The notes under the pieces are model-generated. The model was not told the origin of the DNA and searched no databases. It saw nothing but the letters and a program-made list of their open reading frames with translations. Made by a program: the position numbers and the translations under genes. A stretch of 52,571 bases of DNA from a virus. Lineage: Duplodnaviria; Caudoviricetes. Location: the IMG/VR virus record IMGVR_UViG_3300050133_000102, positions 1 to 52,571 of that record; one strand, given 5' to 3'. Shown here one piece after another: positions 4,835 to 34,505 of the stretch (positions within the stretch are counted from its first letter, which is position 1; the number at the start of each line of letters is the position of its first letter).

Positions 4835-4847
4835 TTTGCTACCTCCT

Positions 4848-5051
4848 TCAGATAAATAATGTACACCCTTGCTCTTTAAATTCATCAATTTTGATTTTCA
4901 AGTCTGCAACGTCGCAGCTGAATGACTCGCTCATACATTCCAGACATTGAAACTTCTGAACATCAGGTGAGATCAATTTCTTATTGAGCGCAACTTCGTC
5001 CTTTGTCAACAGCCTGCCGCAGTCTCGACATTTTTTAGCTTGTGGTTTCAT
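4848..5051 (-). CDS. Small zinc-finger protein (CxxC...CxxC, C-terminal GCxLF)
   Basis: CRDC...DEVALNKKL...FQCLEC...EFKEQGCTLF; GGAG RBS; fills the gap between pglZ and brxL. Confidence 0.8.
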   Translation of the reverse strand: MKPQAKKCRDCGRLLTKDEVALNKKLISPDVQKFQCLECMSESFSCDVADLKIKIDEFKEQGCTLFI

Positions 5052-5059
5052 AATAGCTC

Positions 5060-7408
5060 CTATAAATCGTCATCGACAACCAGCCCTTTTCTTTTCACAT
5101 GAATGGTTTCCGTCTCAGCTGTGAAGATGTTGTTCAAATATATGCGAACAGAGTAGCTTTGGTCGAGACTAAGTCCTGAAATAAGGACGTTCCAATTGTC
5201 TCCCTCTGTTGCATGAGCCTGTAATTGATTACCGTTAATTTCTACCGTTACGCTCTTTACCGAGCCTTTGGCTGTGATGGTTAAAACAGCGTCGCCATTA
5301 CCATCAAGATGAACTTCCGATGACGCCAAATCATATGAAAAATTAACACTGGCTTTTACTTTTTTCTGACCAAGCTTCTTGAAGTGTATAATTGGAACCA
5401 GAATTTCTTCTGGCGAAGCACCTCCATGTAATTCTCCGGGCGCATTACCAGAAATCGTAAAATGGTTATGCGTTTTAAACGCTATGACGGCTCCTTCTTT
5501 TACGGTATTTGTTATCGATGGCATCTTGCTATCTGATGGCATTTCACAATATCGTCCGAGGTTGTATACGGTTGCCGACGATGGCGAGTTAATTCCCTCT
5601 GTTTTATGAAAGCCTTTTGCTGCCATTCTGCTCATGCCGTGGTCTGCGGTAACAACAATATCTTTGTCGGGATGTTTTGCAGCTGCTTGGCAGATAATAT
5701 CAGCAATCTTGTCCATCATTTCAAACTGTTTCGCTATTATTGAATCATAATTGCAATCGCTTTTATCCTTGATGTGACTCAGTGAATCCAAGGCATCAAA
5801 CTTCTTTTCCGAAATAGTGGCAGGGTCGGCTTTTTCCATATTAACAGGCGTTACTGTTGGTAGCACGGCCGTTCCGATATCGACAAATGGATTCACCAAC
5901 GCTGAATTTTGCCGCTTTACCTTGGCAAGTAACATGTCTATCCACTCAATTCCCATGCCATCTATCCACAGGAAGTACGCATCACCTGACCCTTTTAGTG
6001 AAAACAGGATTTGACCCCTTGTTTTGTAATCATAGGGGTTAATTTCGCCTGCCATGTTTGAAAACGAAAGGCTGAAGCGGTCTGCAACCTTGTTAATCTT
6101 ATACTGAGAAATATATTCGGACAGTTCTGTCTCCAGATGTTCCGGCTCGGATAAATAGAGCACAAGGTCTGGATATTTTTCTTTAAGGATTGTCTTAAAA
6201 TCGCTGGGTTGCTTTCCTTCTGATAATGACTGTGACAGCAACTCGATTATTTTTGTCCGTTCATCATGCGTTTTCCCTGTAAGAATTTTTATTTTAATTC
6301 TGGCATCTGATAAACAATCATATCTCGCCCAGAATTCTTGGCTCAATTCATCGATGTCGAGGGAGTTAAGGGCGTCTTTTCTCTGCTCAAGCCATTCATC
6401 AAAATTTGTATTATCAGTGCAACTTAGGATAGCGCACTCAAGAGAGAGGGGGACTGTGTCAGCAGTGCTTGCCTTGGATAAAGCAAACGAAATATAATCA
6501 CTCTTTTGATTAAGCCCAAGCGTATACCACAGGTAAAAAAGCCATTTTTTGCTTGAATCGAATGTGTTCCAATTGCTGAGAATTTGATATGGATCGAATG
6601 TTACACGGTTAAGTGCTCTCGTTACAAGGCTTTCAAGCGTTCCATTAGCAGTTGGAACACACGGAACAAGAGATGTCCACTGTTCATCAGTGCCCAACTC
6701 TTTTATTAACTTTGCGTTGTTCTCCTTGAGAGAACTGCAAATATATGAAAATGGGTCGGTAACAATAGAAAGAGCATAATCACCGCTGGACTGCGACAAC
6801 TGCTTTATTTGTCGGGTCGCAAATGACATGCCCGACTTTATTTTTTTGTCATCCCATAGCTGCAACCACGATTTCAGCCCGTTCGCATTGACAATTCCGG
6901 GTTGGCTTGCGAACGCTTTTGAGTATGCCAGTGCGGAAAAGTCCGAGGGTGCCTCATCAATTTCAAAAAGAGCGTTTCCAAACCGTTCCTCATCCAATGT
7001 TCCCACAATTAATTGGAATAATCCCTTGGCGGCAAAAATGGGTATCCAGACTCTTTTCTTTGAATGCACATGCCGGTTCAGAATGGAGTACAGGCATGCA
7101 GAGTTCCGCTCGGTGACTTCACCGACACGCAAGTATTCTCCAAGGTGTGGGAGAAGTATATTGTTGTCCTTATGCTGATCCAAGTAATCGATGAGTGCTT
7201 TTAAGTCAGGTACGGTATCTTCGCCTTTGCAGAACATATCATCAGAAAGACGAACAACAATGTCCGCCTTGTCAGACAAGGCAGCTATCAGTGTATAGTA
7301 TGTCTTCAAGTTATTCACGAAGAACACACGCGCAACAAGCCGACTTTCTGCGTTATCGGTCGCTATTCCAGTCATCAGTTCTGGTAATGAAATCTGTTTT
7401 ATTAACAC
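5060..7408 (-). CDS. pglZ: BREX (type 4) PglZ alkaline-phosphatase-superfamily protein
   Basis: WIDGMGIEW, LPTVT, VVTADHG, HGGASPEEILVP motifs; GTG start with AAGGAGG. Confidence 0.9.
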   Translation of the reverse strand: MLIKQISLPELMTGIATDNAESRLVARVFFVNNLKTYYTLIAALSDKADIVVRLSDDMFCKGEDTVPDLKALIDYLDQHKDNNILLPHLGEYLRVGEVTERNSACLYSILNRHVHSKKRVWIPIFAAKGLFQLIVGTLDEERFGNALFEIDEAPSDFSALAYSKAFASQPGIVNANGLKSWLQLWDDKKIKSGMSFATRQIKQLSQSSGDYALSIVTDPFSYICSSLKENNAKLIKELGTDEQWTSLVPCVPTANGTLESLVTRALNRVTFDPYQILSNWNTFDSSKKWLFYLWYTLGLNQKSDYISFALSKASTADTVPLSLECAILSCTDNTNFDEWLEQRKDALNSLDIDELSQEFWARYDCLSDARIKIKILTGKTHDERTKIIELLSQSLSEGKQPSDFKTILKEKYPDLVLYLSEPEHLETELSEYISQYKINKVADRFSLSFSNMAGEINPYDYKTRGQILFSLKGSGDAYFLWIDGMGIEWIDMLLAKVKRQNSALVNPFVDIGTAVLPTVTPVNMEKADPATISEKKFDALDSLSHIKDKSDCNYDSIIAKQFEMMDKIADIICQAAAKHPDKDIVVTADHGMSRMAAKGFHKTEGINSPSSATVYNLGRYCEMPSDSKMPSITNTVKEGAVIAFKTHNHFTISGNAPGELHGGASPEEILVPIIHFKKLGQKKVKASVNFSYDLASSEVHLDGNGDAVLTITAKGSVKSVTVEINGNQLQAHATEGDNWNVLISGLSLDQSYSVRIYLNNIFTAETETIHVKRKGLVVDDDL

Positions 7409-7428
7409 GGATATGCCTCCTTCCGCTA

Positions 7429-10400
7429 TTAGTCCTCATCAAGAAGGAACAGACAAGCTTCTGCACTCGAATCAAGTAGCTTAATCAGTTTAGCTCTCAA
7501 CTGTTCTTCTGTCATTTTTGCTGCCTTTTTCTTGGCATTACCACTCACTTCGTCTCTAAGCCCTATCGTGATGAATTGCTCGGTGATTTTTCTAATGGCA
7601 ACAACAGAGTTATTCCACGATGAATAATCCCTGTATCCGCTGTCCTGAATCTTTATTTTGAGCTCATCAATATGCGGTAAAAGGAGATTATAGTATTTCT
7701 CCGATGCAACATTTACGATGAAACATCTGTCGATTTCATTTTTATCCTTCAAAACGGCAAAATCTGTTTCTGTGATAGAACTCAAAGCATTTTCCAATCG
7801 AATGGAATCAATTCGCTCGTTGCGACTGAGCGCAGAAACCACAGAGAAAATAAATGTGCAATTGGGCATTACCCAAGCAACGGGCATCATGTATGTTTGC
7901 GCCCATTCTGCAACGCCTGCTGTGTCTGTCTTTGCCAGCCAAATGGCAAGCAGAGAATTCGCCTGCTTTGTGTATGCTAAATCGTTGATTTTATTGAGGA
8001 TTGCGGTCTTGAAACTGTGTTCTGTTTGGGAGTATGGCTCTTTCTGCAACGCTTTAAGGATATCGCTGCATTCTGCGTCTGAAAATGTGCCCATCCCATT
8101 TTTTGCGATATACGCTTTCAAAACATTCATTGGATGTGAGATATTTTCAATGGCATCCTTTGTGTACAGCTCCAATTCGCTGATGATTGCGGCCTTTTCT
8201 TCGCTCGAATATCCAATCCACTTGCCACTTGCGATATTATGTAAAGTAGCAACAGTCTTTGCCCAGTTATCAGGAAGACCGGCATACACGCAGCCCGGGA
8301 CACGAATATAGTCCAGATAATTCGACAGGGTTTCTTTGATTTTTTCTACGGATTCTGCCGTTCCATTAAGGGCAGAATTCACTACACCTACGAGCGTAAG
8401 GTCGATAGTCAGTTTTGCTGTTGCTTCAGCAACCTCACTTTCGCGCCATTGCCACTTTTCTTCTTCAAGAGCTTTGCTGAGCATGTTGAACAGCGTGTCT
8501 ATCGAGAAATTATATTTTTTACAGGCATTCTCTGCATCTGGAGCGGTTTTAAAAACAAAATTTTTCATGCCATTGGCGAGTTTTGACCTACCTTTAAACA
8601 GACCCGTAAATAGAGGCACGTACGCTTTTGCGCTAACTTTTACAAGGCTGACTATGTCTTCCATGACGGCTGTTTGGCTGCCAATCTCCAGAATGTATTC
8701 AACGTACTTATCCACGATTTCGCAGATTTCTGTTTTTATACCCGCGTAATCCATATCCTCAAGATATTTTAAAGCCCAGAATGGATAGCCGTTCTTTGTA
8801 ATGTGGATTTTTACATTTTTGCGGCAATCGTAAACGTCACCAATTTCTTCTGGGGTAAGTGCGAAAATTCTCCGTGTGATGTCTTTGAAGCGTTTCTCAA
8901 TATCGCTTTCGCTGGAGAGTTTCATGCCAGCGGATTTGCCGGAGAGCATGCTGACGACCATCGTCGGAATCGTATCTTCATCCAGCTTGTGCGCATTGTT
9001 GCCGTCATACCATGTAAATTTTCCAACATAGAAATGGAATGCAAAACCGAGAAGGTAGCAACACACACTGGTATCGTAGTAACCGAGTTTCTGCTGCATA
9101 TCGTCCCACAGGTCGGTGAGCAGCAATGTGCCGGAAGTTAATGCCTTATTGAGATATGTACACAACGAAGCCATGCTGCGACCGACCTTCGTTTCGGTCA
9201 TAGCCATGATATCTTCAATGGTTCCACAATCCCAGACGTTTTCATCATTATCGCGGAGAACATCAACGCAGTCCTGCCACTGCTGATTGAAATTCTTTTG
9301 CTTGTCATTTGCTGCGCTCTTGGTTTCAAGGGTGGTCTTAGACACACCATAGTAAGCCGGTGCCATAGCCGGTGACTTATAAAGCGTAATTTTACGAATG
9401 ATATTTTCAGGTGCCGCAGGGAAAAACCTGAAAACAATCTTTTCATAATTCGAGATAACATTTTTGTTTGTATAAACGTGCGCAGGCGTATCTCCATATA
9501 GAAGGTCCATATCTTTGCCAATAGCAGTGCTGACCCAGTTGCCGACAAGGTCAACAGCCTGAGTCTGATAGGAGTTCGCATTTACGGTATTTCCGGCTCT
9601 TTGTGCGAGGGAACCGTTGGCAACCAGCTCATACCAGCTCTGGAATATTTCCTCTGGCAAAGGATATCTCATCACGGTAACAAGAACACGATGTGTTTCA
9701 TCGTCCGCAATTAATCCAGAAATGGTCGTTTTAATCTTATCGCTTTCTTCGACAGATGGTACTGCCACAATCAGTAAGCCGAACTTATGGTGCGTTTTTT
9801 CTACGGCTTTTTTCAACTCCCCGAATTTGAAGTTGAGTTGCTGCGTTGTTCCCCAACAGGTATCAATAATCAGGCGCTTGACAACAGCTTTTTCATCCGG
9901 TACGAATTGCTTTTTTAGAATTGAGCCGAAACAAGAGTCCGTACCGAGCAGTTTTGCGGGTGAATTGTCCTTTTTGACTTTTTCAATTTCTGCATCAAGC
10001 TCTCCACCGGTGCTGGAATACGGAAGCTCGATTCTCGAACCCTCATGGAGGTCGGGTGCCAAAACAAGAACATTCAGAGGATCGGAGCTGAGCGAATGCA
10101 GGTAGCTTTTCACTGAATCCTTGTCCATTATGCCGGAAAAACAGTCGCAGAGGGTTTTCTCAGTTACTTGGATTCCCTTGCTGCCTCTGGTTTTCTTCAA
10201 GCTATGCCCTGTACCAATGGTGGCAAGCAATAGCATTGCAGCTTTAAAAACGCGAAGCGCACGGTCGTCGCTGATGAGATTTTTAACCTTGCTGTAGTGC
10301 TTGAGAGCATCCTCGGCGGTTTTAGTCAGGTCTTTTTTACCGCCAAGATTGTTTACGAAGAAGTAATCCCACAAGTAGTCAGGGGTTACCCATTTCCAGT

Positions 10401-11655
10401 CATACTGTCCATTGTTATGAATATAAGCACGGAAACCGTCCTCACCGCTACTCTTTAAGAATTCAAAAATACTTCTGTTGGACGCGGCAAGTCCAGCGAC
10501 CATAGAAACAAGATTAACCGTCATCGGGTGGATGGGGAATATTTTCTTAAGCGTGTTAGCATCCATGTCAGAGTCAGGGTCACCCATGTATGAATGCACA
10601 CTACCGCTAATAGATGAATAGAGGTCTTCGCAAATATCCTCCCAGTTGCCCTTCATCCCGTCTTTGGTGATGATGCTCTCACCGATAAGTTTGAAAGTCG
10701 TTTTTTTGCTTAAGGACACATCAATCTTATGGAAGCGGGCATCGGCTTTTCCGAGAGAGCCATTCACACTCTCGGAAAACAGGCCGGGATACTCGTGCAT
10801 AACATAAATAATAAAGAACGGCAGCTCTTTGGAGAAGATAGATAATTGCTGTATTATGTCGAGGTCATTATTCCGAATATACTCGGTAAACTCATCCCAG
10901 ATAATAAATATCCCTGATTTCGATAATTCCTCATTACCTGAGTAGACATCTTTTAGCCACGCTTTGAATGTTTCGAGGTCGGTTGCCAGACCGATGTTCA
11001 TCGACTGCAGGATTTCCTGGGCGCTGGAACAAGCCGTAATATCACCATCTTGGACAGCGTCATAGAAACTGTCAAACGTATCATATGTGCTCCAATGTTC
11101 AGGATACTCGCCGTTTTCAAAATCCTGTACCAGCTTCGGTCGAAAGTCCTTAACAGTGCTACGAACCGAGTCGACCAGAGAATTTCGACCTGTATAAGAG
11201 AAACCATTCTCTTTCAGAATATCCCGAACTGACTGTTCGATCTGAAAAAGGAATTTGTTGGAGGTATTAAGCTGCTTGCTTTCACCGCTGCGGAACTTCA
11301 CATAATAGCGAGCTTTTTTCCGGGCGGCGAGAAACTTGTCCTTCACATCGAGGAACAGCTTATTCTTATTCAAAAAGTTTTCCACGATGCCGTAGTCATC
11401 CTGCAGAAAGTGCTTAATGACAATAGCAGAGTAGGTCTTACCTGTACCATAAGAGCCCTTAATCCAGTAATGCCACACATCTTCGTTGGGGTCATCGGGG
11501 CGCAGGGAGCTGGCAAGCAGTTTTACTGCGGTCACCATGTCGTCATTAACAATATAGCGACTCCAGAAATCCGCATTTCTGCTATCGGAGCTGATATCTA
11601 CCACAGACTCATATCCGGGCGTCAATTCTATGAAGGAATCATATTTGTTTGCCAT
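7429..11655 (-). CDS. brxC: Large P-loop ATPase, BrxC/PglY/SspC family (1408 aa)
   Basis: GSYGTGKT Walker A, IIWDEF Walker B, FPIHP, SNRSIFEF; lies between brxP and pglZ; start placed at ATG 11655. Confidence 0.82.
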   Translation of the reverse strand: MANKYDSFIELTPGYESVVDISSDSRNADFWSRYIVNDDMVTAVKLLASSLRPDDPNEDVWHYWIKGSYGTGKTYSAIVIKHFLQDDYGIVENFLNKNKLFLDVKDKFLAARKKARYYVKFRSGESKQLNTSNKFLFQIEQSVRDILKENGFSYTGRNSLVDSVRSTVKDFRPKLVQDFENGEYPEHWSTYDTFDSFYDAVQDGDITACSSAQEILQSMNIGLATDLETFKAWLKDVYSGNEELSKSGIFIIWDEFTEYIRNNDLDIIQQLSIFSKELPFFIIYVMHEYPGLFSESVNGSLGKADARFHKIDVSLSKKTTFKLIGESIITKDGMKGNWEDICEDLYSSISGSVHSYMGDPDSDMDANTLKKIFPIHPMTVNLVSMVAGLAASNRSIFEFLKSSGEDGFRAYIHNNGQYDWKWVTPDYLWDYFFVNNLGGKKDLTKTAEDALKHYSKVKNLISDDRALRVFKAAMLLLATIGTGHSLKKTRGSKGIQVTEKTLCDCFSGIMDKDSVKSYLHSLSSDPLNVLVLAPDLHEGSRIELPYSSTGGELDAEIEKVKKDNSPAKLLGTDSCFGSILKKQFVPDEKAVVKRLIIDTCWGTTQQLNFKFGELKKAVEKTHHKFGLLIVAVPSVEESDKIKTTISGLIADDETHRVLVTVMRYPLPEEIFQSWYELVANGSLAQRAGNTVNANSYQTQAVDLVGNWVSTAIGKDMDLLYGDTPAHVYTNKNVISNYEKIVFRFFPAAPENIIRKITLYKSPAMAPAYYGVSKTTLETKSAANDKQKNFNQQWQDCVDVLRDNDENVWDCGTIEDIMAMTETKVGRSMASLCTYLNKALTSGTLLLTDLWDDMQQKLGYYDTSVCCYLLGFAFHFYVGKFTWYDGNNAHKLDEDTIPTMVVSMLSGKSAGMKLSSESDIEKRFKDITRRIFALTPEEIGDVYDCRKNVKIHITKNGYPFWALKYLEDMDYAGIKTEICEIVDKYVEYILEIGSQTAVMEDIVSLVKVSAKAYVPLFTGLFKGRSKLANGMKNFVFKTAPDAENACKKYNFSIDTLFNMLSKALEEEKWQWRESEVAEATAKLTIDLTLVGVVNSALNGTAESVEKIKETLSNYLDYIRVPGCVYAGLPDNWAKTVATLHNIASGKWIGYSSEEKAAIISELELYTKDAIENISHPMNVLKAYIAKNGMGTFSDAECSDILKALQKEPYSQTEHSFKTAILNKINDLAYTKQANSLLAIWLAKTDTAGVAEWAQTYMMPVAWVMPNCTFIFSVVSALSRNERIDSIRLENALSSITETDFAVLKDKNEIDRCFIVNVASEKYYNLLLPHIDELKIKIQDSGYRDYSSWNNSVVAIRKITEQFITIGLRDEVSGNAKKKAAKMTEEQLRAKLIKLLDSSAEACLFLLDED

Positions 11656-11656
11656 T

Positions 11657-14011
11657 TCAATTACCCCCCAGTACGATATTAACGACATCCAGTGAGTTCT
11701 TCTCGCTATTCAGTGTTATATTATCGAGGTCAGCAACAAATGCGATTTTGATGAAATCGGGATAGTCATTTGCAAGCTGACGTACCATCTCCTTGAACGC
11801 GTCCTCGTCCAAAGCAAAAATCGTGACAGGGTCCATACCGACGAAATTCTCCGGGCGGTTGTCGCGGATGTTCTTTAGCTCCTTCAGCGTAATGTTAAAG
11901 TGTCCGCCAAGCTTCTCCGCGTATCGATACATCGCATAGAGGATGGCAGTGCCATCAGGCGTAGACCAGCCTTTTTTTGTGAAGCGATATGAGTTGCCAC
12001 TCGGAATCGGTACGCCCATTTCTAATGTCGAACCTATAGGGCTATTAACAAAGGTTTCGGCCAATGAAGTAATGGCATTATTCCGTGTAGAAGCGGAATA
12101 AATATCATCAATCATTTCCACAAGCTCCGCCTTTGTGTAGGTTTCATCATTTGGCACATTAAGCAGATACCATTTTACCAGCGTGGAATTATAAGCTAAA
12201 TTAGTCCATATCACAGCCCATGTAAATGGGTGAAATGGGCCTATTTCTATCAATTTTTCACCAAGAGCGGTAATTTGACCATTCTTTCCATTTGATGTGC
12301 CAACTTCGATTACTTCGCTCTCTTTTAGATAGACCTTAAGCGCATCATATTGGCGATTGCCGTATTCCTTCGAACTCCAGCAATCGTTACCTTGCTCGAA
12401 GAAATGTTCAAGCCAAGCTCCCCTTAATCCAAAGTGTTGATACCTATTCATACCCTTAAGGTCCATGTTGCTACCTCCTTGTGTTGTGGACAATGAACGT
12501 GCTACTTTGCATCCTTTTGCAACTTCCGTGATACATTTTCCACAATGAACACATTTTTCGCTTATTATTGAGATTTTTCGATTTTCATCTATGGTAAACG
12601 CCCCTGTCGGACATTCCACAGAACAACTATTGCAGCCAATACAATAGGCGGCCTTATTTGCTAAACCACGTAACCAACTTATGGTGAATCTGTCCATACT
12701 GCTGAAGCCGGAATATGTTACCGTTGAATTATCTTCACCTACTTCAAAATTGTAGGTTTTATCCTTAATAATCTGTTTCCCGGAGTTTTGATTACGTTCG
12801 ACAATTGGACCTATTATTCTTCCGACCTCTATCCAAGGCTGTCTAATTTCACTAAAGACAAATTGCAAGGTATCATCTTGAATTATCTCGTGTACGCGGT
12901 TACCTCCATTTTTTAATCCGCGTCCTCCGAACCGACCTTTCCAACCACCTTGGGCAACGTACTTTTTTACTTCTTTTTCAGGCTTGTTATCGGCAGCATA
13001 TTCTTCAACTCGTGCCAAGAATGGTGCCAAATCATCTTTATATGCGATATTTGCAATTCCATCCCACCAAGCTGATGACATTGGACACACAGCACAACCG
13101 ACTCGGAATAGGCCTAATCTGTATGCATTATTGAACAGAATATCACGCTCCAAGATATACAAATATATCTCAGATGTACTCCATTTCAAAATGGGGCTGC
13201 AATTAATCTGATTAATATGTTTCTTTCCTTCGGACAATTCTGTATAGGTTGAACGCTGCTCACTTTCTTCGGCACGAACGCCATCAAAAACCACGGCTTT
13301 GATATTTTCGCCTTCGGATATTTTTTGCAAAAGTACAAGTGTCGGCACTGATTTGTGTACACCGCAGCACCAGCGAAGTCTTCTCCCCGGAGGACCGAAT
13401 TCGCTCCACGATTCCTTCGCGTCAAACTCCGATTTTGCGGTTTGAAAATTTAGATTCGGATAATGTTTTTTTGCTTTTTCGACCGCTTGGTATGTATCGC
13501 GAAGTTCCATCCCCGTATCTCCAAAGACCACAAGGAATTGGTCTGGTACCAAGGCTCTTTGAACGATATCAAGAATAACAATGGAATCTTTGCCACCGCT
13601 ATATGCAGCAACAAACTTATAGCCCTTTGTAGCATATTCATCGTATGTTGCTCGAATAAATTGAACAGTTCTTTGTACAAGCCCCTCCATGATGGAAGCA
13701 TTTGTTTTTATAAGCTTATCAACATCAATCGGCTCCAACTTTTTAATTTCGGTGTTCTTAATTACGATTTTCGGCTTTTCATAAAAGCTGCCGCCCTTGG
13801 CTTCCGCAATCACCTCGCCGTTTAACACATATTTCCGAATACCCTCTGCCCACAGTAGCGGCGCTTTGGTATCGGGATATTCCCAGACCTTATACATTTC
13901 GAAGAAGTCCAGTTCTTCCTTGAAAACAGGTCTTATTTCTTTTTGAACGGTTACGGAAACATCGAGCTTGAAAATGCCGTTTTCTCCGTCCACCCATCTA
14001 TATCCATACAT
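11657..14011 (-). CDS. brxP: BrxP: PAPS-reductase (DndC/SspD-like) domain + ferredoxin-type Fe-S domain + C-terminal DUF4007-like domain
   Basis: SGGKDS PP-loop, RWCC, GVRAEESEQR, RVGCAVCP; CIGCNSCSVECP and CVHCGKC; C-terminal ~270 aa winged-helix-like region. Confidence 0.85.
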   Translation of the reverse strand: MYGYRWVDGENGIFKLDVSVTVQKEIRPVFKEELDFFEMYKVWEYPDTKAPLLWAEGIRKYVLNGEVIAEAKGGSFYEKPKIVIKNTEIKKLEPIDVDKLIKTNASIMEGLVQRTVQFIRATYDEYATKGYKFVAAYSGGKDSIVILDIVQRALVPDQFLVVFGDTGMELRDTYQAVEKAKKHYPNLNFQTAKSEFDAKESWSEFGPPGRRLRWCCGVHKSVPTLVLLQKISEGENIKAVVFDGVRAEESEQRSTYTELSEGKKHINQINCSPILKWSTSEIYLYILERDILFNNAYRLGLFRVGCAVCPMSSAWWDGIANIAYKDDLAPFLARVEEYAADNKPEKEVKKYVAQGGWKGRFGGRGLKNGGNRVHEIIQDDTLQFVFSEIRQPWIEVGRIIGPIVERNQNSGKQIIKDKTYNFEVGEDNSTVTYSGFSSMDRFTISWLRGLANKAAYCIGCNSCSVECPTGAFTIDENRKISIISEKCVHCGKCITEVAKGCKVARSLSTTQGGSNMDLKGMNRYQHFGLRGAWLEHFFEQGNDCWSSKEYGNRQYDALKVYLKESEVIEVGTSNGKNGQITALGEKLIEIGPFHPFTWAVIWTNLAYNSTLVKWYLLNVPNDETYTKAELVEMIDDIYSASTRNNAITSLAETFVNSPIGSTLEMGVPIPSGNSYRFTKKGWSTPDGTAILYAMYRYAEKLGGHFNITLKELKNIRDNRPENFVGMDPVTIFALDEDAFKEMVRQLANDYPDFIKIAFVADLDNITLNSEKNSLDVVNIVLGGN

Positions 14012-14028
14012 AAATCTGCCATCCTTTG

Positions 14029-16590
14029 TTAGTTTATAGTCACCTTACTGTTTTTCTCCGTCCAGTAAAAGCGCAAATCGCCGGCAACAGTCTTATGTAC
14101 ATTCCACATCTTTTCTGAGCCGTGAATTAATCCTTTGTCGAGCAAAAACTCTCTGAATTCTGAAGCGGTTAGTTCTTTTGGAAGCGAAAATGACTTTGAT
14201 ACTTCATTCCAGACCAAATCCGAAAATGTTCTGAATGGAGAATTCTTCTTCAGAATAGCTGCCGGAATGGTCTTTTTGTCGTTGTCATTACCTGCTTCGA
14301 CGGTAATGTATCCAATATCAAAAAGCCGTAACATGTCTTCCAGAAAAAGAGGCGACCATTGAATATTGGTCGGTACAGCCGGAAGCGTCGTGTAGAAATA
14401 GTCTGCAATTTCGCCGAAAGCGATATAGGCTTCGCCTTCAAGCAGGTTCTCTATTTGAACCCTGAGAGCGCTCAGGAAATTATCGTTCACATAAAGTGCT
14501 TCCTTCAGGGCAAAGCAGTTTTCCGCATACTGAAGGAAGGATTTACTGCCTGAGGTGAACAGAATATTTGAGAATGACTGGTCTGGTGTTGCAGAGCCGA
14601 TTGACTCAAAAAAGGTAAGTGCCTGTTCGCGGGTAAAAATATTCTGATGCTCTCGACCATACTTGATTAACAGGCCGTGAAAGTCTTTCGGATAGTTTGG
14701 CTCGTTCCTCCAGATATGCATACCATTCAGGAACAAGAAAGAATTACCTTTATAATTCTCCTGAGTAAAAAGATGCACCGCGAGGTCAAATACCTCCGGG
14801 CGCGACTCAAACGCATTGTTGTAGAAGAAGAAATCATCCAGCCGAAAATGCGCATCATTATATAGCTGCTGTGCGGATGTGTAATCGCCATTAGCGGCAA
14901 ATTGCTTTGTCAGGACATCAAGAAGAATTCCCGCCATTTCGTCATAATTGCTTATATTATCCTTGTGATAATATTTTTTAAGCGCCTTTACTGCATGACA
15001 TGCCGTCAATGCATGATTGACCTGCGGTGTACTGTAATTTGAAAAGTGCGCAAAAACATCTTTCTCTGATATTCCGTCACTACTGGCTTTCAGGAAAGCA
15101 GACAGTTCATTGGTAAGCCCTGTGGATGCAGTCTCAGTTCTTGGCTCTGCCTTTGCTTTCTCAGGGGTACTAATTGCAGGAAAATCCACTGCGTCAATTC
15201 CATCTGGATAAAGATAGCTAAAGTATTTTACCAGTTTCTGAAACGCAGCGGAAAAGCGATTATGCTGGTCTTGATTAATCTGCCTGAACCCTTCATCTGC
15301 CATTAAACAAGAGACGGTCGACAGCGCTTCTTTGCTGTCAACGCCAGAAATATTTCTGCTGGGAAGATTGTGTTCTCTTGCATGTGATTCTGCCTTGTTT
15401 AGCGCGGAAACATAGCTGCGGCACGTACCATCTGCCATTTTTTCAATGTTTTTCAGCCACTCCGAAAATGTAATATCAGAATTGTTGCCAGACGCAATAT
15501 GCGTTTCTTCCTTTGGCTGCATCTTATCATGAACCCTATCGGAAGGCTTCTTTTCTTGATATTCAATTACAACATTTTCTGAAGAAATGCCACAAATATC
15601 AAGTAATGCTGTAATCTTCTTCACTATGTCGGTGGCGCTGATATTGGTTTCGATATAATAATCATCAATGATTTGTTTCGGCGCAGTCATCCCATCGGCA
15701 GCACCAAAATCCAGCCTGCCGCTTTTGTAAAATGACTGTCCAATCGGAATGATGGCTGTATAATCCGTATAAATGCTTTTGAACAGCTTAACATACAACT
15801 CAGTCCAATTTGAAACTGATTCCTCACGAACCCCGCGATATGTGAACACTACGGGTCTTGTGTATGCGAGAGATGGCATATTCCTGAAATCGATTATCAT
15901 GTTATTGTTTGTTTCTGTGGGAGTTGCGGATGCTACTGGGATTACTTCAGTGGTTTCTTCTGCAGGGGTAATATTGGGCAAATCCATCACAAATGCGTAA
16001 TACCAGTTAGCCGCAGAGATGATATTGTTAATCTGCTTCTTGTTTTTTATCCTGAATATTTTGTTTTGGCTCACCGTTTTGGCAAAGCGCTTGATGGTGC
16101 TTTCATCTGTTGTTTCAAACAACGGGGCAGAAAGGACTTTGATTTTCAGACAAAACTCTTCTGCAACAGGCAAAAATCGGCATAGGAAATCAGGCTGGAC
16201 TTTTGGCGCTTTGACTGCCAGCCACGCACAAAACTGCTGACGAGTTTTTTCTTGAATATCACTCACGCCTTTTGCCTCCATCAATATTTTTTCGTAACCT
16301 TTGTAATCATTTTTGTACAGTTGCACCATCTGCCTGAAAAGGTCAGATGTGTTTTTCAGACCGATACCATCGTCAGAAAATAGATAATCAAGTTCACCCA
16401 GCCGCATGTTGATCCCATTTTCGTTGCGATATGTTTCGTCAATAACTACGCCTCGACTGGACGCCCGTAAGCGCAGCGCTTCAGACAGTGTGGTGAAGAC
16501 AGCCCTTCTCGACAATTTGTTTTCTTTTGTCTTCCAGTACGCTTCAATAAGAAGGGCTGCTTCGTACTGATCCCATTTTGGCTGTCGCAC
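14029..16590 (-). CDS. Large multi-domain hypothetical protein (853 aa), probably DNA-binding, defence-associated
   Basis: Long ORF with GTG start and AAGGTG RBS; two internal helical repeats (FxxWL...SAA..Y/L..F); no catalytic motif recognised. Confidence 0.7.
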   Translation of the reverse strand: MRQPKWDQYEAALLIEAYWKTKENKLSRRAVFTTLSEALRLRASSRGVVIDETYRNENGINMRLGELDYLFSDDGIGLKNTSDLFRQMVQLYKNDYKGYEKILMEAKGVSDIQEKTRQQFCAWLAVKAPKVQPDFLCRFLPVAEEFCLKIKVLSAPLFETTDESTIKRFAKTVSQNKIFRIKNKKQINNIISAANWYYAFVMDLPNITPAEETTEVIPVASATPTETNNNMIIDFRNMPSLAYTRPVVFTYRGVREESVSNWTELYVKLFKSIYTDYTAIIPIGQSFYKSGRLDFGAADGMTAPKQIIDDYYIETNISATDIVKKITALLDICGISSENVVIEYQEKKPSDRVHDKMQPKEETHIASGNNSDITFSEWLKNIEKMADGTCRSYVSALNKAESHAREHNLPSRNISGVDSKEALSTVSCLMADEGFRQINQDQHNRFSAAFQKLVKYFSYLYPDGIDAVDFPAISTPEKAKAEPRTETASTGLTNELSAFLKASSDGISEKDVFAHFSNYSTPQVNHALTACHAVKALKKYYHKDNISNYDEMAGILLDVLTKQFAANGDYTSAQQLYNDAHFRLDDFFFYNNAFESRPEVFDLAVHLFTQENYKGNSFLFLNGMHIWRNEPNYPKDFHGLLIKYGREHQNIFTREQALTFFESIGSATPDQSFSNILFTSGSKSFLQYAENCFALKEALYVNDNFLSALRVQIENLLEGEAYIAFGEIADYFYTTLPAVPTNIQWSPLFLEDMLRLFDIGYITVEAGNDNDKKTIPAAILKKNSPFRTFSDLVWNEVSKSFSLPKELTASEFREFLLDKGLIHGSEKMWNVHKTVAGDLRFYWTEKNSKVTIN

Positions 16591-16636: not shown

Positions 16637-16870
16637 TTATGTTTCAGCCGGATTATGCTCTGCGTTTCCGTCAGACACAATTTCCATGATATCGCCTATC
16701 TTGCAGTTTAATGCGGTACAAATTTTGAGCAGTATTTCCGTATTTACATTTCCGCCGTTACCGAGCTTGGCAACGGATGTGGCGCTAATGCCACTCATCT
16801 CACGCAGGGTTTTCTTGTTTATTCCTTTGTCAATTAATAATTTCCACAGTTTGTTGTAGCTGAATCGCAT
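16637..16870 (-). CDS. XRE/Cro-C1-type HTH transcriptional regulator
   Basis: SYNKLWKLLIDKG...SGISATSVAKLG...LLKICTALNCKIGDIMEI, a pattern common beside Firmicutes restriction loci; GGAGG RBS. Confidence 0.9.
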   Translation of the reverse strand: MRFSYNKLWKLLIDKGINKKTLREMSGISATSVAKLGNGGNVNTEILLKICTALNCKIGDIMEIVSDGNAEHNPAET

Positions 16871-16889: not shown

Positions 16890-18554
16890 TTACTGCTCAG
16901 TTACATTGACCTTATTGGTTTTCTTAGCCCACGAATAACCGTAAAGCTCATTACCACCCTCGCTAAGGCGGATTATCGTAGTGCTATCCAATATTTCCTG
17001 AATGCGTTTTGTCGGTGCATCCTGCTTATCATACGCAATGAATATTTGCTTTCCACTCTGAAGATATAACTCCATGATTCTTTCCAACGGCTCATAGCCT
17101 ATGTGATTGAACATTAGCGAATCATGAATGATTGCTGGTAACGGTGTTATCTTCAAAACGCTCAAGTCAAAAACTATCATACTCTTAAACCCTGTTCCCA
17201 TACCGCCATCGTCCGGAGTATAAAAGCTATACTTTGCGCTGCTTTCAAACTGAATGACCGGAGCCATTCTGGTGCCGTTGTAGATATAATCATTAAATCT
17301 AACCATTTGCTCGTTGATTGTCGAGGCAATAAGGTTCAGTACCTCCATTTCAACACCTGACAGAGCTTTTTTCGCTGCCTTGACATCGGCCACCAATGTT
17401 TGTGAGGTTTCGCAAGCCTTATTCTGCGATTTCAGTACGGCTATCCTACGTGTCAAATCGGTGAACTTCTGCAAAAATTTCTGCGGGATAGTAACCGGAA
17501 TCCCAAATTCACGCTGTTGCGCTTGCAAATCCTCGATTTCAGCATTTAATACATCTAACAAAGATTGGAGTCTACCAATTTCCTCCTCCATTTCGTTTTC
17601 CAAAATGCTGTGTATTTGTTGGTGAAACCTTTCAACAGAATCAAGTCTCTGAATGTCGATTTCAGGGAAGAGCTCAGAAAGCTCGCGGTAATCACTGTCA
17701 GTAATTGTAAAACCACTGTTGTTGATTTTTATGGTGTTTTGCTGAGAAATCAACTTACTCCTATTTCGTTTAAATAGTGTAATCCGGCTCTTTATAGCCA
17801 GTACAGTATCTGCGTTATCCATATCTTCCTCGGTCATATTGACATCAAGGGTGTCTGTTAACGCCTGAAGCTCTTCCTCTAATCTTTCAATCTCTCTTTC
17901 GTTATCCATGGCTTGCCGGGCAGTAGGGACATATACCTGAAGGACATCTTCTTTTTTGGCGTCGTTAAAGGCGTCCTTTTTGTCCTCCTTTTTCTTGCTC
18001 TCGCTTTTATACTGCTCAATCTGAGTGTAATAATTAAAAAGTTTTTCTAAAGCTGTAATTGCAGCGGAGGCGCTTTCTTTTGAATCTGCATGCAGCGGAA
18101 GTTTCTCTGAATAATTGTCCTTGCCGTAGATTCGCATGTATCGTCCTACAATATCTCTAAATGTGATCGATGGGAGATCAATCTTATACATTTCAAATAA
18201 ATGCTGACGAAAATCTGCTAATTTGATTGTCTCTATTACACTGTAGTTTTCATTGCATTTATTCACTTCAGTTGGCGTAACAATGCTACGGGAATAGTAT
18301 TCTTTCTTCCCGCCAAAAACAAAAGCAAAACTTACGGTATGCCGTACATCGGCGAATCGAGCTTTTACGTCGGTTCCTGTGTAGTAGGTATCGCCGCCGA
18401 AACAAAAGTCGACAGCAAGTAAAAATGTCGACTTTCCAATAGAATTGTCGGATTGCTTTCCGCCACGTACTGTATTCAGACCGCTGTGAAATATGATACG
18501 GCCGCGTTTGCTACCATTCGATACAAACTCATCACTCATGATTTCGCTCAACAT
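16890..18554 (-). CDS. lmuB: ABC-3C/Lamassu SMC-like ATPase (DUF2326 type)
   Basis: FHSGLN...NSIGKST Walker A, central coiled coil, GGMGTG signature, IIHDS Walker B, KQIFIAYD. Confidence 0.85.
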   Translation of the reverse strand: MLSEIMSDEFVSNGSKRGRIIFHSGLNTVRGGKQSDNSIGKSTFLLAVDFCFGGDTYYTGTDVKARFADVRHTVSFAFVFGGKKEYYSRSIVTPTEVNKCNENYSVIETIKLADFRQHLFEMYKIDLPSITFRDIVGRYMRIYGKDNYSEKLPLHADSKESASAAITALEKLFNYYTQIEQYKSESKKKEDKKDAFNDAKKEDVLQVYVPTARQAMDNEREIERLEEELQALTDTLDVNMTEEDMDNADTVLAIKSRITLFKRNRSKLISQQNTIKINNSGFTITDSDYRELSELFPEIDIQRLDSVERFHQQIHSILENEMEEEIGRLQSLLDVLNAEIEDLQAQQREFGIPVTIPQKFLQKFTDLTRRIAVLKSQNKACETSQTLVADVKAAKKALSGVEMEVLNLIASTINEQMVRFNDYIYNGTRMAPVIQFESSAKYSFYTPDDGGMGTGFKSMIVFDLSVLKITPLPAIIHDSLMFNHIGYEPLERIMELYLQSGKQIFIAYDKQDAPTKRIQEILDSTTIIRLSEGGNELYGYSWAKKTNKVNVTEQ

Positions 18555-18774
18555 ATCTCAACACCTCCGTTTCTTCGTCATAATCTATTTTATTAAGGGC
18601 GTATAGGCAATCTAAAATTTCCATATATTCATTTACTCCGGTAACGTTCCCTTGAACTCTTTTATATAGTTCCGAAACACTGCATGGAGCTTTTTTTAAT
18701 ATCTGTAGAATGCTTGGAAATTTTGATATGATGCTTTCGTTGTATGAAAACAACTTATTCGGCAATAACATCAT
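18532..18774 (-). CDS. lmuC: ABC-3C middle component (LmuC-like)
   Basis: LLPNKLFSYNESIISK...ELY...LDCLYALNKI; overlaps both neighbours. Confidence 0.78.
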   Translation of the reverse strand: MMLLPNKLFSYNESIISKFPSILQILKKAPCSVSELYKRVQGNVTGVNEYMEILDCLYALNKIDYDEETEVLRYVERNHE

Positions 18775-19870
18775 ACACCTCGCACTTCTGGACAAAATAC
18801 GAAACGACTATTTCACATGCCATTCTGTCCTCGTTTGTACTGCTTTGTATCCAGTCAACCAGTTTTTTAAATATCGTTGGTTGAGATAAGTTTTCATTGC
18901 TCAACTTCAGATAGTTTATTTTCACGCTGTTACAGAATGGTCGAAAATGTTGTTTTCCTTCCTGATCCATCTGCTTAAGCCATTGGTCAACTTTACTATA
19001 GTAAGCGGTTACATAACTTTTCACTTTGATAAACAGTGGATTGTAATCGGCCCTGATTTTTTGCCTCACTCTAACCGGGTTATAGTTCAATGGAACCAGT
19101 TCTTCATCAGGAGCAATTAAGATTTTCTCAAGTACTCTTTCAACACCATGCTCGATTTGTTCAGAAGATAGTATTAAGGATTCCACCGCATCCTGCATTA
19201 ACCGCTTTTTTAGTGATTTAAGCCTTGCTTTTGCTTCAGGTAGCTTATTTTGTGTCAGCTTTGCGTAACAGGATGGGCACAGAGCTATTAAGTTATCAAA
19301 AGTCACAGGCTGCGACTCATCGATTCTTAAGACCTCATAACACAATTCGGCCTGGCCATTTATGTCGGACTGCAATGACTGATTACACCAGTCATTGGGG
19401 CAAATACAATTTGTTTCAATAACAAGACTAACGCCAAAAGATCCTTTTAGTCCATCACCAGTATTAATTCTGGTGATGGATTTCTTTTTATCATTAACAG
19501 CCTCAAGCAATATTGACTGAAAGAGCTCTGCTATTTTCTTAGCAACATTGAATGTCGTTATTTCGGGGCAGTAATCCTGAAAGTTACCGCAGATATTGAA
19601 CAACGCTCCTTCTTCAAAAGAATCAATATATGTTTCGAACTTTGTCGTTTCAATGTACTGATTTACTTTTTTCGCCAGCGACCTGATTTTTCGGGTTCCA
19701 TTGAAGTAGCTCTTAAAAGTTGAAACTAATTGCTCGCCAAAAGGATTATCGTCTTCTAATTCTTCAGGGTATTCGATAATTTCGCAGAATAATTCAAGCG
19801 CAAATTTACCGGTAGTCATGCCACCACCGATAATCGGAAAAAGCAAATTTGCAAATTTCTCGAATGTCAT
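18755..19870 (-). CDS. ABC-3C/Lamassu first component (LmuA-like): HTH-like N-terminus + degenerate HNH zinc domain + ABC-3C C-terminal domain
   Basis: C-terminal CEIVVSYFVQKCEVY motif; CPNDWC...NLIALCPSC; first gene of the three-gene module. Confidence 0.75.
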   Translation of the reverse strand: MTFEKFANLLFPIIGGGMTTGKFALELFCEIIEYPEELEDDNPFGEQLVSTFKSYFNGTRKIRSLAKKVNQYIETTKFETYIDSFEEGALFNICGNFQDYCPEITTFNVAKKIAELFQSILLEAVNDKKKSITRINTGDGLKGSFGVSLVIETNCICPNDWCNQSLQSDINGQAELCYEVLRIDESQPVTFDNLIALCPSCYAKLTQNKLPEAKARLKSLKKRLMQDAVESLILSSEQIEHGVERVLEKILIAPDEELVPLNYNPVRVRQKIRADYNPLFIKVKSYVTAYYSKVDQWLKQMDQEGKQHFRPFCNSVKINYLKLSNENLSQPTIFKKLVDWIQSSTNEDRMACEIVVSYFVQKCEVYDVIAE

Positions 19871-20017
19871 CTACGTATCCTCCTCACTTTTTGTACCCAA
19901 CTGTATCCGACTGTGACAGTGCGTAATGCTGTCAAAATTAAAATCTAACTATAATTGTTTTATGTAAGAAGGGCTCGCAATTGGCACTGATAAAAACACC
20001 ACGAGCCACTTTTACAT

Positions 20018-20046
20018 AGTGTACCACGGAATTTCGCAATAATCAA
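20018..20046 (-). promoter_or_regulatory. Sigma-A-type leftward promoter for the defence operon
   Basis: Minus strand TTGATT (20046-20041), 17 bp spacer, TG-n-TACACT (20023-20018). Confidence 0.6.
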
Positions 20047-20099
20047 TATAGTTTTGCGAACGCGAAACAAAATAGTTTCTCACATTCAATGTTTTGCGA

Positions 20100-20320
20100 G
20101 AGCCTGTGAGTGCAAAATCGCCTCGTAGTACATCCGCTGATCACGGATGGCTCAGTGCAACGTGACGAACAACCGAATAATGAACAGCTGACTACTGAAC
20201 AGGAAGCTGCAATCCGAAACGGAGTAATCTGCCAGGACTGCGGTCGGGCTTTTATGCCTGCTTTCCAATCAGCTTCGCAGATTCCTCCGTTTCGAGACAA
20301 CGACAAACGGAGGAAATCAA
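20100..20320 (+). ncRNA. Structured 5' leader / candidate cis-regulatory RNA upstream of the sigma-like gene
   Basis: Three-way junction at 20100-20153; mutually exclusive stems 20215-20232/20277-20294 and 20282-20292/20305-20315 (the latter covers the SD). Confidence 0.5.
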
Positions 20321-20845
20321 ATGAAAAACCAAGCCAATCAAGGACAAGCCAGAGACTACAAAGTCTACCTGCCTCGCCTGAAGAAATGGGTGGAGGTCAC
20401 CAAGGAGCAGTACTACGGCTACTACCGCGACTTATGGGCCACCCGCAAACGCGCTCAGGAGCACGGCCAATGTATGTGTCCCAAAAGCAAACTGTGGCTG
20501 TGCGACGGCGATTGCCTTGCCTGTCAGTATCGTGCCGCTGGCGACACCCCCTCCCTCGACTATACCTACGAGAACGAAAAAGGCGAGGCGTTCTCCATGC
20601 TAGACAAGCTGGAAGATGAATCTGTCAGCATTGAGGAAATTGTCACCGACAAAGCCGTGCTGGAGCAACTGTTTAATCGTCTCGACGAAATTATGCCTGA
20701 AGCCCGCCGCATCGGTGAGCTTCGTCTCGCAGGACTTACCGACACCGAGATAGCAAAAATCATCGGAGTTTCCCGCACCACCTTTCTTTCCCGCCTCAAA
20801 AAAGCCGCCGAATTTTTGAAAGATGAATACAGCGATTTGTTCTAA
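20321..20845 (+). CDS. Phage sigma-70 region 4 / ECF-like regulator
   Basis: C-terminal HTH GLTDTEIAKIIGVSRTTFLSRLKK; Cys cluster CMCP...CDGDCLAC; SLD motif. Confidence 0.8.
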   Translation: MKNQANQGQARDYKVYLPRLKKWVEVTKEQYYGYYRDLWATRKRAQEHGQCMCPKSKLWLCDGDCLACQYRAAGDTPSLDYTYENEKGEAFSMLDKLEDESVSIEEIVTDKAVLEQLFNRLDEIMPEARRIGELRLAGLTDTEIAKIIGVSRTTFLSRLKKAAEFLKDEYSDLF

Positions 20846-31531: not shown

Positions 31532-31864
31532 ATGCCAAACAAACCATCGATAACCTGCAACCATCCCGGCTGCTCAATGCTTGCTGTCAAGAACGGATAC
31601 TGCGAACGGCATCGGGGGTCAGGGTTTCAAAGGAACAGTGACATACAAAAGCTTTATGACAGAGACTGGAGCAGAAAAAGCAAGGCGTATCTTGCTGAGT
31701 GCCCTTGGTGTCAGGACTGCCTGGAGCATGGAGTGTACGAACCTGCAACAGAGGTGCATCACTCCATACCTCATCGAGGGAATCAGCACATCTTTTGGGA
31801 TAAGAGCAATTGGAGAGCGCTCTGCAAACGCTGTCATTCAAAGCATACAGGGCGCGGCGAATAG
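31532..31864 (+). CDS. Phage packaging HNH endonuclease
   Basis: CNHPGC...YCERH, CQDC, ATEVHHSIPHRG...FWD.SNWRALCKRCHSK. Confidence 0.9.
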   Translation: MPNKPSITCNHPGCSMLAVKNGYCERHRGSGFQRNSDIQKLYDRDWSRKSKAYLAECPWCQDCLEHGVYEPATEVHHSIPHRGNQHIFWDKSNWRALCKRCHSKHTGRGE

Positions 31865-31967
31865 CACCCCCGCCGCCAATAAAGTATCAGGAATCGCTTT
31901 TGGGGAGCGTTGGGGCCTCGGATGTGCGAAAAATCCCCTAAATTGGTATTTGGAAAGAAGGACCTGC

Positions 31968-33233: not shown

Positions 33234-33491
33234 TTATTTCTCTTCAGTATATCTTTCTGGCTGCAAAAGTTCCTTGGCCTCGCTAAGGCGTAAATCCCAA
33301 TATTTTTGCAGAAGCTCAATGATTTTCTCATCTCCAACTTCGGCTTCACGCAGAGCCGCAGTCGCCTTTTCAATTCCAAGGACTCTTTCTTTAAAGGCAG
33401 CTTCATCTAGCCTTGCATTGGTTTTTTCTCTTATGCCTTCTAACAGTTCACTACCAAATCCCGAAAAAGAATCACTAATAGAACGTGCCAT
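33234..33491 (-). CDS. Small hypothetical protein (85 aa), second gene of the moron
   Basis: AAGGAGG RBS, 17 bp after the upstream gene. Confidence 0.7.
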   Translation of the reverse strand: MARSISDSFSGFGSELLEGIREKTNARLDEAAFKERVLGIEKATAALREAEVGDEKIIELLQKYWDLRLSEAKELLQPERYTEEK

Positions 33492-34438: not shown

Positions 34439-34505
34439 GATTTTCATCTCCTCAAATTCCGGTTTAGCAACCTCTAATATAAACAATGAGCATTTCAATA
34501 GTAAT

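Follow-up and report, generated by a model that had tools for sequence, protein, structure and literature searches.

Lamassu systems are currently seen as sensors that release a cell-killing enzyme. In the accessible portions of the literature, the short Lamassu systems (Vibrio cholerae DdmABC and Salmonella LmuACB) are encoded in the order effector, small middle protein and ATPase of about 550-600 amino acids (aa), the effector carries a C-terminal docking domain, and the Walker B motif is of the hhhhD[S] type. The effectors characterised among them are enzymes (Cap4 nuclease, lipase and others). According to the accessible part of a 2025 preprint, the oligomerisation domain of the effector is sequestered in the solved Lamassu complexes between two SMC-like protomers and LmuC, and activation leads to its release and oligomerisation. 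We found a module with the short Lamassu gene order in a 52,571-nucleotide (nt) DNA stretch from a virus (Duplodnaviria; Caudoviricetes; IMG/VR record IMGVR_UViG_3300050133_000102, positions 1 to 52,571; hereafter the window). It encodes a 371-aa protein in the effector position, an 87-aa middle component and a 554-aa short SMC/Rad50-like ABC ATPase, and is followed by a gene for a 77-aa XRE/HTH_26 regulator (XRE77). The branch to which it belongs comprises 909 representative clusters in several phyla and differs from the systems above, because the HNH module of its effector-position protein lacks the histidines and the N-terminal domain (the head) shows no enzyme signature. With a probability of about 0.5, we read the module as a Lamassu variant borne by a prophage, with an output by binding instead of catalysis and with exclusion or abortive defence as its outcome.

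Family membership of the three genes

Judged from their sequences, the three genes are an ABC-3C/Lamassu-family trio. ABC-3C systems are reportedly defined through Pfam CTD and MC families, a definition said to go back to Krishnan and colleagues in 2020. The locus has an ABC ATPase with a coiled-coil insert, a middle component between effector and ATPase, and an effector-position protein ending in a CTD domain; the recognisable toxic or enzymatic domain expected at the N-terminus of the effector was not found in the 371-aa protein. Pfam placed CTD11 on residues 234-366 of the 371-aa protein (E 9.7e-33, above the 27.7-bit cut-off), MC7 on residues 11-79 of the 87-aa protein (E 8.9e-26), and DUF2326 and AAA_23 on the ATPase. 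These assignments bear out an earlier note on the window, made from the letters alone, which had described a C-terminal ABC-3C domain followed by overlapping lmuC- and lmuB-like genes. The overlaps are 41 and 23 nt long with longest-start calls, and the 87-aa gene probably starts not at the TTG but at an ATG pair some 20 nt further downstream. The corresponding PHROG families are phrog_6948 (full length), phrog_6259 and phrog_5467, all of them without an assigned function.

The predicted proteins agree only in part with the PADLOC models for Lamassu. Residues 1-137 of the 371-aa protein aligned with positions 1-141 of the LmuA model PDLC03857 (E 1.3e-20), a match confined to the head, and residues 188-367 aligned with PDC-M68A (E 8.8e-11). 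The best ATPase match was PDC-M68B (E 3.4e-14, residues 33-530 on positions 35-567 of 581), and the LmuB model PDLC03859 matched residues 13-238 only (E 2.1e-8). Among 40 aligned ATPases, Walker A Lys41 is kept in 39, the Walker B string hhhHDS in 35-36 and Asp478 in 36, and the ATPase therefore looks competent; the motif check of these 40 sequences showed that a CxxC hook is absent. Section 5 of a 2025 preprint, within the text available, gives the short-Lamassu Walker B as hhhhD[Q/S/T/E], which hhhHDS fits.

To follow the family beyond the window, 39 genome loci were assembled, mostly from Bacillota and also from Gardnerella, Boudabousia, a Thermotogaceae metagenome-assembled genome, Treponema and Ruminobacter (individual loci are numbered with L below). 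Clostridium oryzae DSM 28571 (L002) and Clostridium manihotivorum CT4 (L005) are among the sources. MC7 is present in all 39 and the ATPase in 38, indicating that the trio is inherited together. The family of the 371-aa protein comprised 83 clusters in a word-indexed 90% library, and 909 representative clusters at E<=1e-3, of which 505 reached E<=1e-10.

The HNH relic and the head of the 371-aa protein

The 371-aa protein contains the strings CPNDWC, YEVLRID and NLIALCPSCY. A profile of 37 full-length homologues (27-88% identity) matched the HNH domain of EcoKMcrA among the PDB sequences (E 1.1e-5), and the alignment set the family string 'yevvvid' on 'LEVHHVI' of McrA and 'CpeCa' on 'CPNCH'. 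Like EcoKMcrA-type nucleases, the protein has the beta-beta-alpha-metal module with four zinc cysteines (Cys157, Cys162, Cys198 and Cys201) and the structural asparagine (Asn193), whereas Leu181-Arg182 stand in the place of the 'HH' dyad and Tyr202 in that of the last histidine. Neither the catalytic nor the metal-ligand histidines of an HNH nuclease were found. The AlphaFold model of the whole protein had a mean predicted local distance difference test score (pLDDT) of 76.8, and its top Foldseek matches in the PDB were EcoKMcrA, Cap5 and ScoMcrA (probability 0.92-1.0, E only 0.03-0.3). The middle of the 371-aa protein is, as far as sequence can tell, an HNH homologue, namely a zinc-binding relic without the catalytic histidines.

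To see how widely this form is spread, the HNH positions were aligned in 218 sequences, the window protein and those 217 of the 227 collected relatives that are 250 aa or longer. The results showed that all four cysteines are kept in 199 of them and Asn193 in 196. A histidine occurs in none at position 181, in 11 at position 182 (the general base) and in 34 at position 202. The earlier note had the cysteines kept and the histidines missing, and for the window protein both statements stand; carried over to the family, the second does not, because the last histidine is retained in those 34 of 218 sequences. When the alignment was divided by the head, the 201 head-bearing proteins included 183 with the four cysteines, not one of which has a histidine at both 182 and 202, and 18 that lack the zinc module. 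The conservation of the loss, which the earlier note had raised as a question, was thereby confirmed for the head-bearing form. Among the 17 head-less proteins, 8 carry an intact E-[VI]-A-H-I-Y-P ... C-x-x-C-H motif and are about 250-270 aa long, and 8 further ones resemble N-terminally short copies of the His-less form. Since the motif is kept in 0 of the 183 head-bearing and in 8 of the 17 head-less proteins, the loss of the catalytic histidines accompanies the gain of the head. The head-less relatives with intact HNH and CTD11 (P0083, P0174, P0189, P0200, P0202, P0207, P0220 and P0223) are likely the ancestral, catalytically competent form of the effector.

Of the described systems, PDC-M68 (A+B) resembles the module in that its B component is the best PADLOC match of the ATPase and its A component matches the part with the HNH relic and CTD11; the window protein differs by an extra head of 126 aa and by the missing histidines. 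In view of its 253 model positions, PDC-M68A presumably represents the intact-HNH form. As far as the text of a 2025 preprint was available, the short Lamassu include an 'HNH' subtype and an effector-less 'clade O', to which the 371-aa family may or may not belong. An intact HNH for comparison, which the earlier note had pointed out at 31532, does lie in the window (31532-31864, plus strand, EVHHSIP ... CKRCHSKH). This open reading frame (ORF) overlaps, in another frame, the start of a ParB-like nuclease/DNA methyltransferase fusion (31581-33146, plus strand).

The N-terminal head was modelled by AlphaFold2 (AF2) as nine helices, all-alpha, with high confidence (residues 1-126, pLDDT 92.3, predicted template modelling score 0.86). 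No fold match was found in the PDB (Foldseek best E 0.12, template modelling score <=0.28, globin-like noise), the profile search gave no match to PDB sequences, and a protein atlas search with residues 1-135 gave no usable match. The BFVD matches of the head were confined to three phage proteins, all uncharacterised, one of which is a stand-alone protein of 141 aa. The earlier note had considered the N-terminal ~125 aa to be helix-turn-helix (HTH)-like. This description was not upheld, as no HTH family in Pfam or NCBIfam matched the head, and hhalign gave a probability of 0.3% for a relation to the XRE77 family. The net charge is -8 for the head (family mean -5.9) and -5 for the HNH relic (family mean -2.5), with only a short linker being basic, and all head positions conserved at >=90% are hydrophobic or Gly/Ala, none of them polar. 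The acidity and the purely hydrophobic conservation make direct DNA binding and enzymatic activity less likely, and would fit a protein that binds other proteins. Together with the missing relation to XRE, they also argue against the 371-aa protein as a DNA-binding repressor. One relative, P0173 (966 aa), has the head and zinc module (query residues 2-207) joined to a C-terminal TPR protein, without CTD11.

The same head was found on other ATPase chassis. A fusion of the head to CTD6 is the product of the first leftward gene in L056, L062, L082 and L085; next come MC2, an ATPase of 610-632 aa and an XRE77-like gene. These units lie at about 3100-6450 on the minus strand, opposite a sigma-like gene. 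The L056 proteins matched PADLOC models over their full length (LmuA PDLC03857, E 4.7e-93; LmuC, E 2.2e-54; LmuB, E 2.1e-222), and the LmuA matches of L056 and L085 ranged from E 5e-93 to 9e-98. Because the head on CTD6, with MC2 and LmuB, matches these models at full length, the head of the window protein is, by homology, a recognised but uncharacterised LmuA head. The Lamassu type represented by PDLC03857 (CTD6/MC2/LmuB PDLC03867) thus resembles the module in head, slot and following XRE gene, and differs from it in having CTD6 in place of CTD11, an MC2 of 149 aa, an ATPase of 610 aa and no HNH relic. In L076 (2597-6444, minus strand), a head-only protein of 224 aa is followed by an AAA_13/PDC-S06 ATPase and then by an XRE gene, again opposite a sigma-like gene. 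Neither the CTD6 nor the 224-aa forms in this slot have an HNH relic. The head therefore recurs with three types of ABC ATPase in one phage slot, each time followed by an XRE77-like gene.

The phage slot, XRE77 and its putative operator

In the window, ORF calls and Pfam confirmed the position given in the earlier note: the leftward genes start with the 371-aa gene, which faces the sigma-like gene and a rightward DUF2800/SSB/PolA/primase block. Also in agreement with that note, no CI-type repressor combining HTH and peptidase was found in a scan of 37 window ORFs, a set that stops short of the structural genes beyond 34564. Of the 34 loci with 900 nt or more of upstream sequence, 29 have phage early genes opposite the module, which is the first unit on the leftward side (union of counts); the other five are L006, L008, L032, L035 and L037. 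With the deposited phages described below, these loci answer in the affirmative the question of whether N-terminal homologues occupy the repressor slot in related prophages. A sigma-like homologue is the divergent neighbour in 22-23 of the 39 loci, DUF2800/SSB/PolA modules occur in 12 of the 26 loci with at least 3 kb upstream, and Ant/primase-helicase modules as in Streptococcus phage Javan422 lie upstream in other loci. The Pfam tally of 126 upstream ORFs gave DUF2800 10, sigma-70 region 4 8+4, Enc34 SSB 6, ANT 4 and VapE 3; HTH_3 was found in only 2, and Peptidase_M78 was not among the 25 families listed.

Six deposited phages, Streptococcus and Ruminococcus phages among them, carry a relative of the 371-aa protein. 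The Javan422 record has the unit at its left end and serine recombinases at its right end, and its annotation names no further repressor. This layout is shared by Ruminococcus phage NatCom_28274 and by Streptococcus phage phiStag1, where the divergent neighbour is annotated as a sigma-70 family factor.

For comparison, a sister set of the 80 closest DUF2800 phage loci was used, 55 of which have a sigma-like gene and at least 4 kb upstream. A unit of head-bearing protein and ABC ATPase was found in only 7 of these 55, indicating that it is accessory. The three nearest ORFs of each of the other 48 sister phages (144 ORFs) comprised HTH_3 11, Peptidase_M78 10, HTH_26 8, HTH_31 8 and N6_Mtase 7, and also included NACHT, DndB, BrxA and Abi_C. 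The pairs of HTH and Peptidase_M78 in this slot we take to be ImmR/ImmA-like, a repressor with its inactivator. Triplets of ~280 aa, 72 aa and 550-900 aa in the sister phages had been considered as further ABC-3C units and were rejected, as the Pfam tally showed HTH, Peptidase_M78 and methylase genes.

The assignment of XRE77 to HTH_26 is firm (Pfam E 1.7e-19, 70.3 bits against a cut-off of 22), and an XRE gene follows the ATPase in 26 of the 32 loci with at least 300 nt beyond it. In the window, it begins 19 nt past the ATPase gene and lies 46 nt before the 853-aa gene on the BREX side. Across loci, XRE77 is 46-85% identical, compared with 28-89% for the 371-aa protein. The sequence TTYGCRAA was counted 18 times in the 13,950 nt upstream of the 371-aa gene and 40 times in the other 384,863 nt of the loci, an enrichment of about 12-fold, and all upstream sites lie at -149 to -234. 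An exact site was found in 13 of 31 loci, plus the window. Related loci share a layout of a TTTGC-N4-GCAAA-type palindrome followed by a TTGAC-like -35, a 17-nt spacer and a TGnTATAAT -10, and in some of them the spacer holds a second operator-like site. A generic promoter scan performed no better than on shuffles and did not list this promoter found by comparison. Among the XRE-bearing loci, 12 of 22 have the exact operator, and among the XRE-less loci 0 of 5; as the loci are related, this co-occurrence gives weak support. From these data, we infer that XRE77 autoregulates the module promoter through the conserved palindromic operator. Given that conservation is far higher in XRE77 than in the 371-aa protein and that the module promoter carries this conserved palindrome, XRE77 appears to be the better candidate for the DNA-binding regulator.

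XRE77-like genes (105-120 bits) also head leftward cargo operons without an ATPase in L048, L049, L051, L054, L055, L079, L080, L084, L089 and L097, under near-consensus TTGA-17-TGnTATAAT promoters with different upstream palindromes. The idea that XRE77 is a mere tail of the module was rejected, as closely similar XRE genes head these operons, and XRE77 may belong to the module, the cargo or the phage backbone. In phage lambda, cI-rexA-rexB is expressed on the lysogenic side of a divergent control region, and rexAB is a defence unit co-transcribed with the repressor; in ImmR/ImmA, the repressor is paired with a dedicated inactivator. Neither has a sequence relationship to the module, and, unlike in them, its small HTH gene stands last and is conserved across phyla with its operator.

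Readings of the module and its surroundings

If the module is a defence variant, a strong leftward promoter would drive it away from the early operon, with XRE77 co-transcribed, and it would form the promoter-proximal unit of the defence cargo arm of the phage, continuing into type-4 BREX. By analogy with the solved Lamassu complexes, the ATPase dimer and MC7 would keep the 371-aa subunit inactive through CTD11, and foreign or aberrant DNA, for example DNA ends, would free it for self-association. The freed protein would then act through binding, with a basic protein as a more probable target than DNA, and would cleave no nucleic acid. The most likely outcome would be that superinfecting phages or plasmids are excluded from the lysogen, or that an abortive response sets in. 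A binding output is proposed because the HNH lacks the catalytic histidines and the head is acidic and non-enzymatic, and a defence outcome is favoured because of the family, the cargo context and the accessory distribution.

Several points weigh against this reading. No toxic or enzymatic activity is assignable to the 371-aa protein from its sequence, so the step that would define a defence system is missing, and the literature searches turned up no experiment on its family. Departing from the short Lamassu, the 87-aa protein matched none of the PADLOC families, LmuC models included, and the match of the ATPase to LmuB is weak and partial. The slot of the lysogeny regulator is always taken by the unit, with no other repressor candidate nearby, and the combination of three chassis with one head, one slot and one XRE gene looks tied to the control region of the phage. 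As well as the head and the slot suit a regulatory output, the defence-island context and the accessory distribution suit an ordinary prophage-borne defence system.

A tentative alternative is a sensor-coupled switch, in which the ATPase senses damaged or foreign DNA and the freed acidic head acts as an anti-repressor or an anti-sigma-like binder of XRE77 or the sigma-like protein, leading to RecA-independent induction or to derepression of BREX. This alternative is kept alive by the non-catalytic head and the conserved slot, which faces early genes in the 29 of 34 loci across Bacillota, Actinomycetota, Thermotogota and others, recurs in deposited phages without another annotated repressor such as Javan422, and in sister phages holds the HTH and M78 pairs presumed to be ImmR/ImmA-like. 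The head has the acidic, non-enzymatic character expected for a binder of basic DNA-binding proteins; head and XRE77 recur together with the three ATPase chassis, and XRE77 sits between the module and the variable cargo and heads cargo operons elsewhere. We nevertheless consider a switch doubtful, as nothing points to the head touching either XRE77 or the sigma-like protein, the unit is an accessory one (7/55 sister phages) lying inside defence cargo, the conservation of XRE77 and its operator across phyla is too strong for a phage-specific immunity determinant, and the known relatives of the family are abortive-infection systems in the portions of the literature available. It is equally doubtful, though possible, that temperate phages repurposed the SMC-like sensor from a nuclease trigger to the release of an acidic domain neutralising the XRE repressor or the sigma-like protein. 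Such a switch would sense DNA structure and, independently of RecA, bring about prophage induction or an alarm-type derepression of BREX and restriction-modification cargo, and the three unrelated ABC-ATPase chassis that share one head and one slot would represent convergent solutions to one regulatory task.

The earlier note had gone further and proposed the 371-aa protein itself as the prophage repressor, with an HTH-like N-terminus and a dead HNH zinc module under the control of the ATPase. The gene does stand first leftward in the repressor slot, and the relic retains the Cys4 zinc site and Asn193 (196/218 relatives). HNH-derived modules are able to bind DNA, and of the conserved operator-like sites upstream, two have their centres 21 bp apart in L002-L005, which would suit a larger protein. 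We consider this proposal improbable: no HTH was found in the head by Pfam, NCBIfam, hhalign, Foldseek or the PDB profile search, both head and HNH relic are acidic in the window protein and in the family means, 18 of the 201 relatives with the head have no zinc module, the same slot is filled by CTD6 and 224-aa forms without the relic, and the operator is missing from all five XRE-less loci examined. More improbable still is a decaying, non-functional remnant of an HNH-type Lamassu like PDC-M68 whose effector was inactivated. The catalytic histidines are indeed lost while the sister group retains them, but the His-less form is full length and conserved (83 clusters in the 90% library, 909 representatives at E<=1e-3), the Cys4 site, CTD11 and the ATPase motifs are intact, and the three genes are open and translationally coupled and have gained a conserved new head.

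Literature searches on ABC-3C, on DUF2326/CTD11/PDC-M68 and on Lamassu with prophage induction, judged by titles and abstract openings with figures and supplements outside their scope, found no description of a His-less HNH Lamassu, of the head, or of a Lamassu in the lysogeny slot. For a prophage-borne defence variant, the lost nuclease chemistry and the new head would imply a binding output, which the literature searched does not describe for the superfamily. Even if the module is plain defence, the head would be a new type of effector whose target is worth identifying. Because the unit sits at the lysis-lysogeny control region with its own conserved promoter, operator and XRE gene, it is also a testable candidate for a link between SMC-type DNA sensing and transcription control.

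Among 81 ORFs that follow the XRE gene across the 39 module loci are BrxA (7), BrxB (4), type I/II restriction-modification and AbiTii. In the window, the arm past XRE77 (1589-16590, minus strand) holds a type-4 BREX set (Table 1), and a PglZ-like protein and a cysteine desulfurase are also named among its defence genes. This gene composition corresponds to that of type-4 BREX in the accessible part of PMC12839542. Homologues of the 853-aa protein accompany BrxP in L013-L015, L067 and L085.

Table 1. Positions of the module, its control region and the neighbouring features in the window
Feature	Position	Strand	Basis
371-aa LmuA-like 'effector' subunit (acidic all-alpha head, His-less HNH relic, long helix, CTD11)	18755..19870	-	ORF, Pfam, PADLOC, PHROG
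Head domain, aa 1-126 of the 371-aa protein	19493..19870	-	AF2 model
Degenerate HNH, aa 151-210 of the 371-aa protein	19241..19420	-	profile and alignment
CTD11, aa 234-366 of the 371-aa protein, presumed docking domain for MC7 and ATPase	18773..19171	-	Pfam PF20277
87-aa middle component MC7, LmuC position	18532..18795	-	ORF, Pfam, PHROG
554-aa short SMC/Rad50-like ABC ATPase, LmuB position	16890..18554	-	Pfam, PADLOC, PHROG
77-aa XRE/HTH_26 regulator (XRE77)	16637..16870	-	Pfam HTH_26
Predicted module promoter: -35 TTGATT 20041-20046, 17-nt spacer, TG-extended -10 TACACT 20018-20023	20018..20046	-	
Operator-like palindrome GTTTTGCGAACGCGAAAC, adjoining the -35	20051-20068		within operator-like region 20033..20100
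TTYGCRAA-type sites	20033-20040 and 20093-20100		
Inverted repeat, 17-nt arms, 82% complementary, predicted 5' end of module leader	19961..20018	-	
Sigma-70 region-4-like protein, first rightward early gene	20321..20845	+	weak Pfam Sigma70_ECF and Xre-like-HTH; phrog_13787
DUF2800 RNA motif, leader of the divergent sigma-like gene	20118..20279	+	Rfam RF02960, 120.2 bits (gathering 60.2), E 9.7e-23
853-aa protein	14029-16590	-	no family in Pfam, NCBIfam, PADLOC, PHROGs
BrxP-DUF4007 fusion	11657-14011	-	PADLOC E 9e-240
1419-aa protein, BREX set	within 1589-16590	-	
DUF7863 protein	5060-7408	-	
BrxL	3266-4888	-	
Class-V aminotransferase	2136-3266	-	

The DUF2800 RNA motif marks the opposite side of the control region of the module. 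The 3' part of the motif has two possible pairing partners, a segment further upstream and the GGAGG ribosome-binding site of the sigma-like gene, and the leader has alternative hairpins at 20215-20232, 20277-20294 and 20305-20315. The alternative pairing with the ribosome-binding site suggests that the first early gene of the phage may be under translational control by this leader. The GC content is about 0.42 (0.38-0.45) left of 20,000, where the BREX, XRE and ABC-3C genes lie, and about 0.52 (0.49-0.55) to the right, with the replication and structural genes; the sharp step coincides with the divergent control region (~20000).

Beyond the BREX genes, at the left end of the window, lie a PadR-family regulator (413-745, minus strand) and a DUF1048 protein (163-411, minus strand), a possible sign of the element's end or of host DNA. 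On the other side, two minus-strand ORFs, 33509-34570 (353 aa) and 33234-33491 (85 aa), form a pocket of low GC (0.36-0.39) in the plus-strand late region. No Pfam match was found for either, nor a PHROGs match for the 353-aa one, and the pair looks like a moron.

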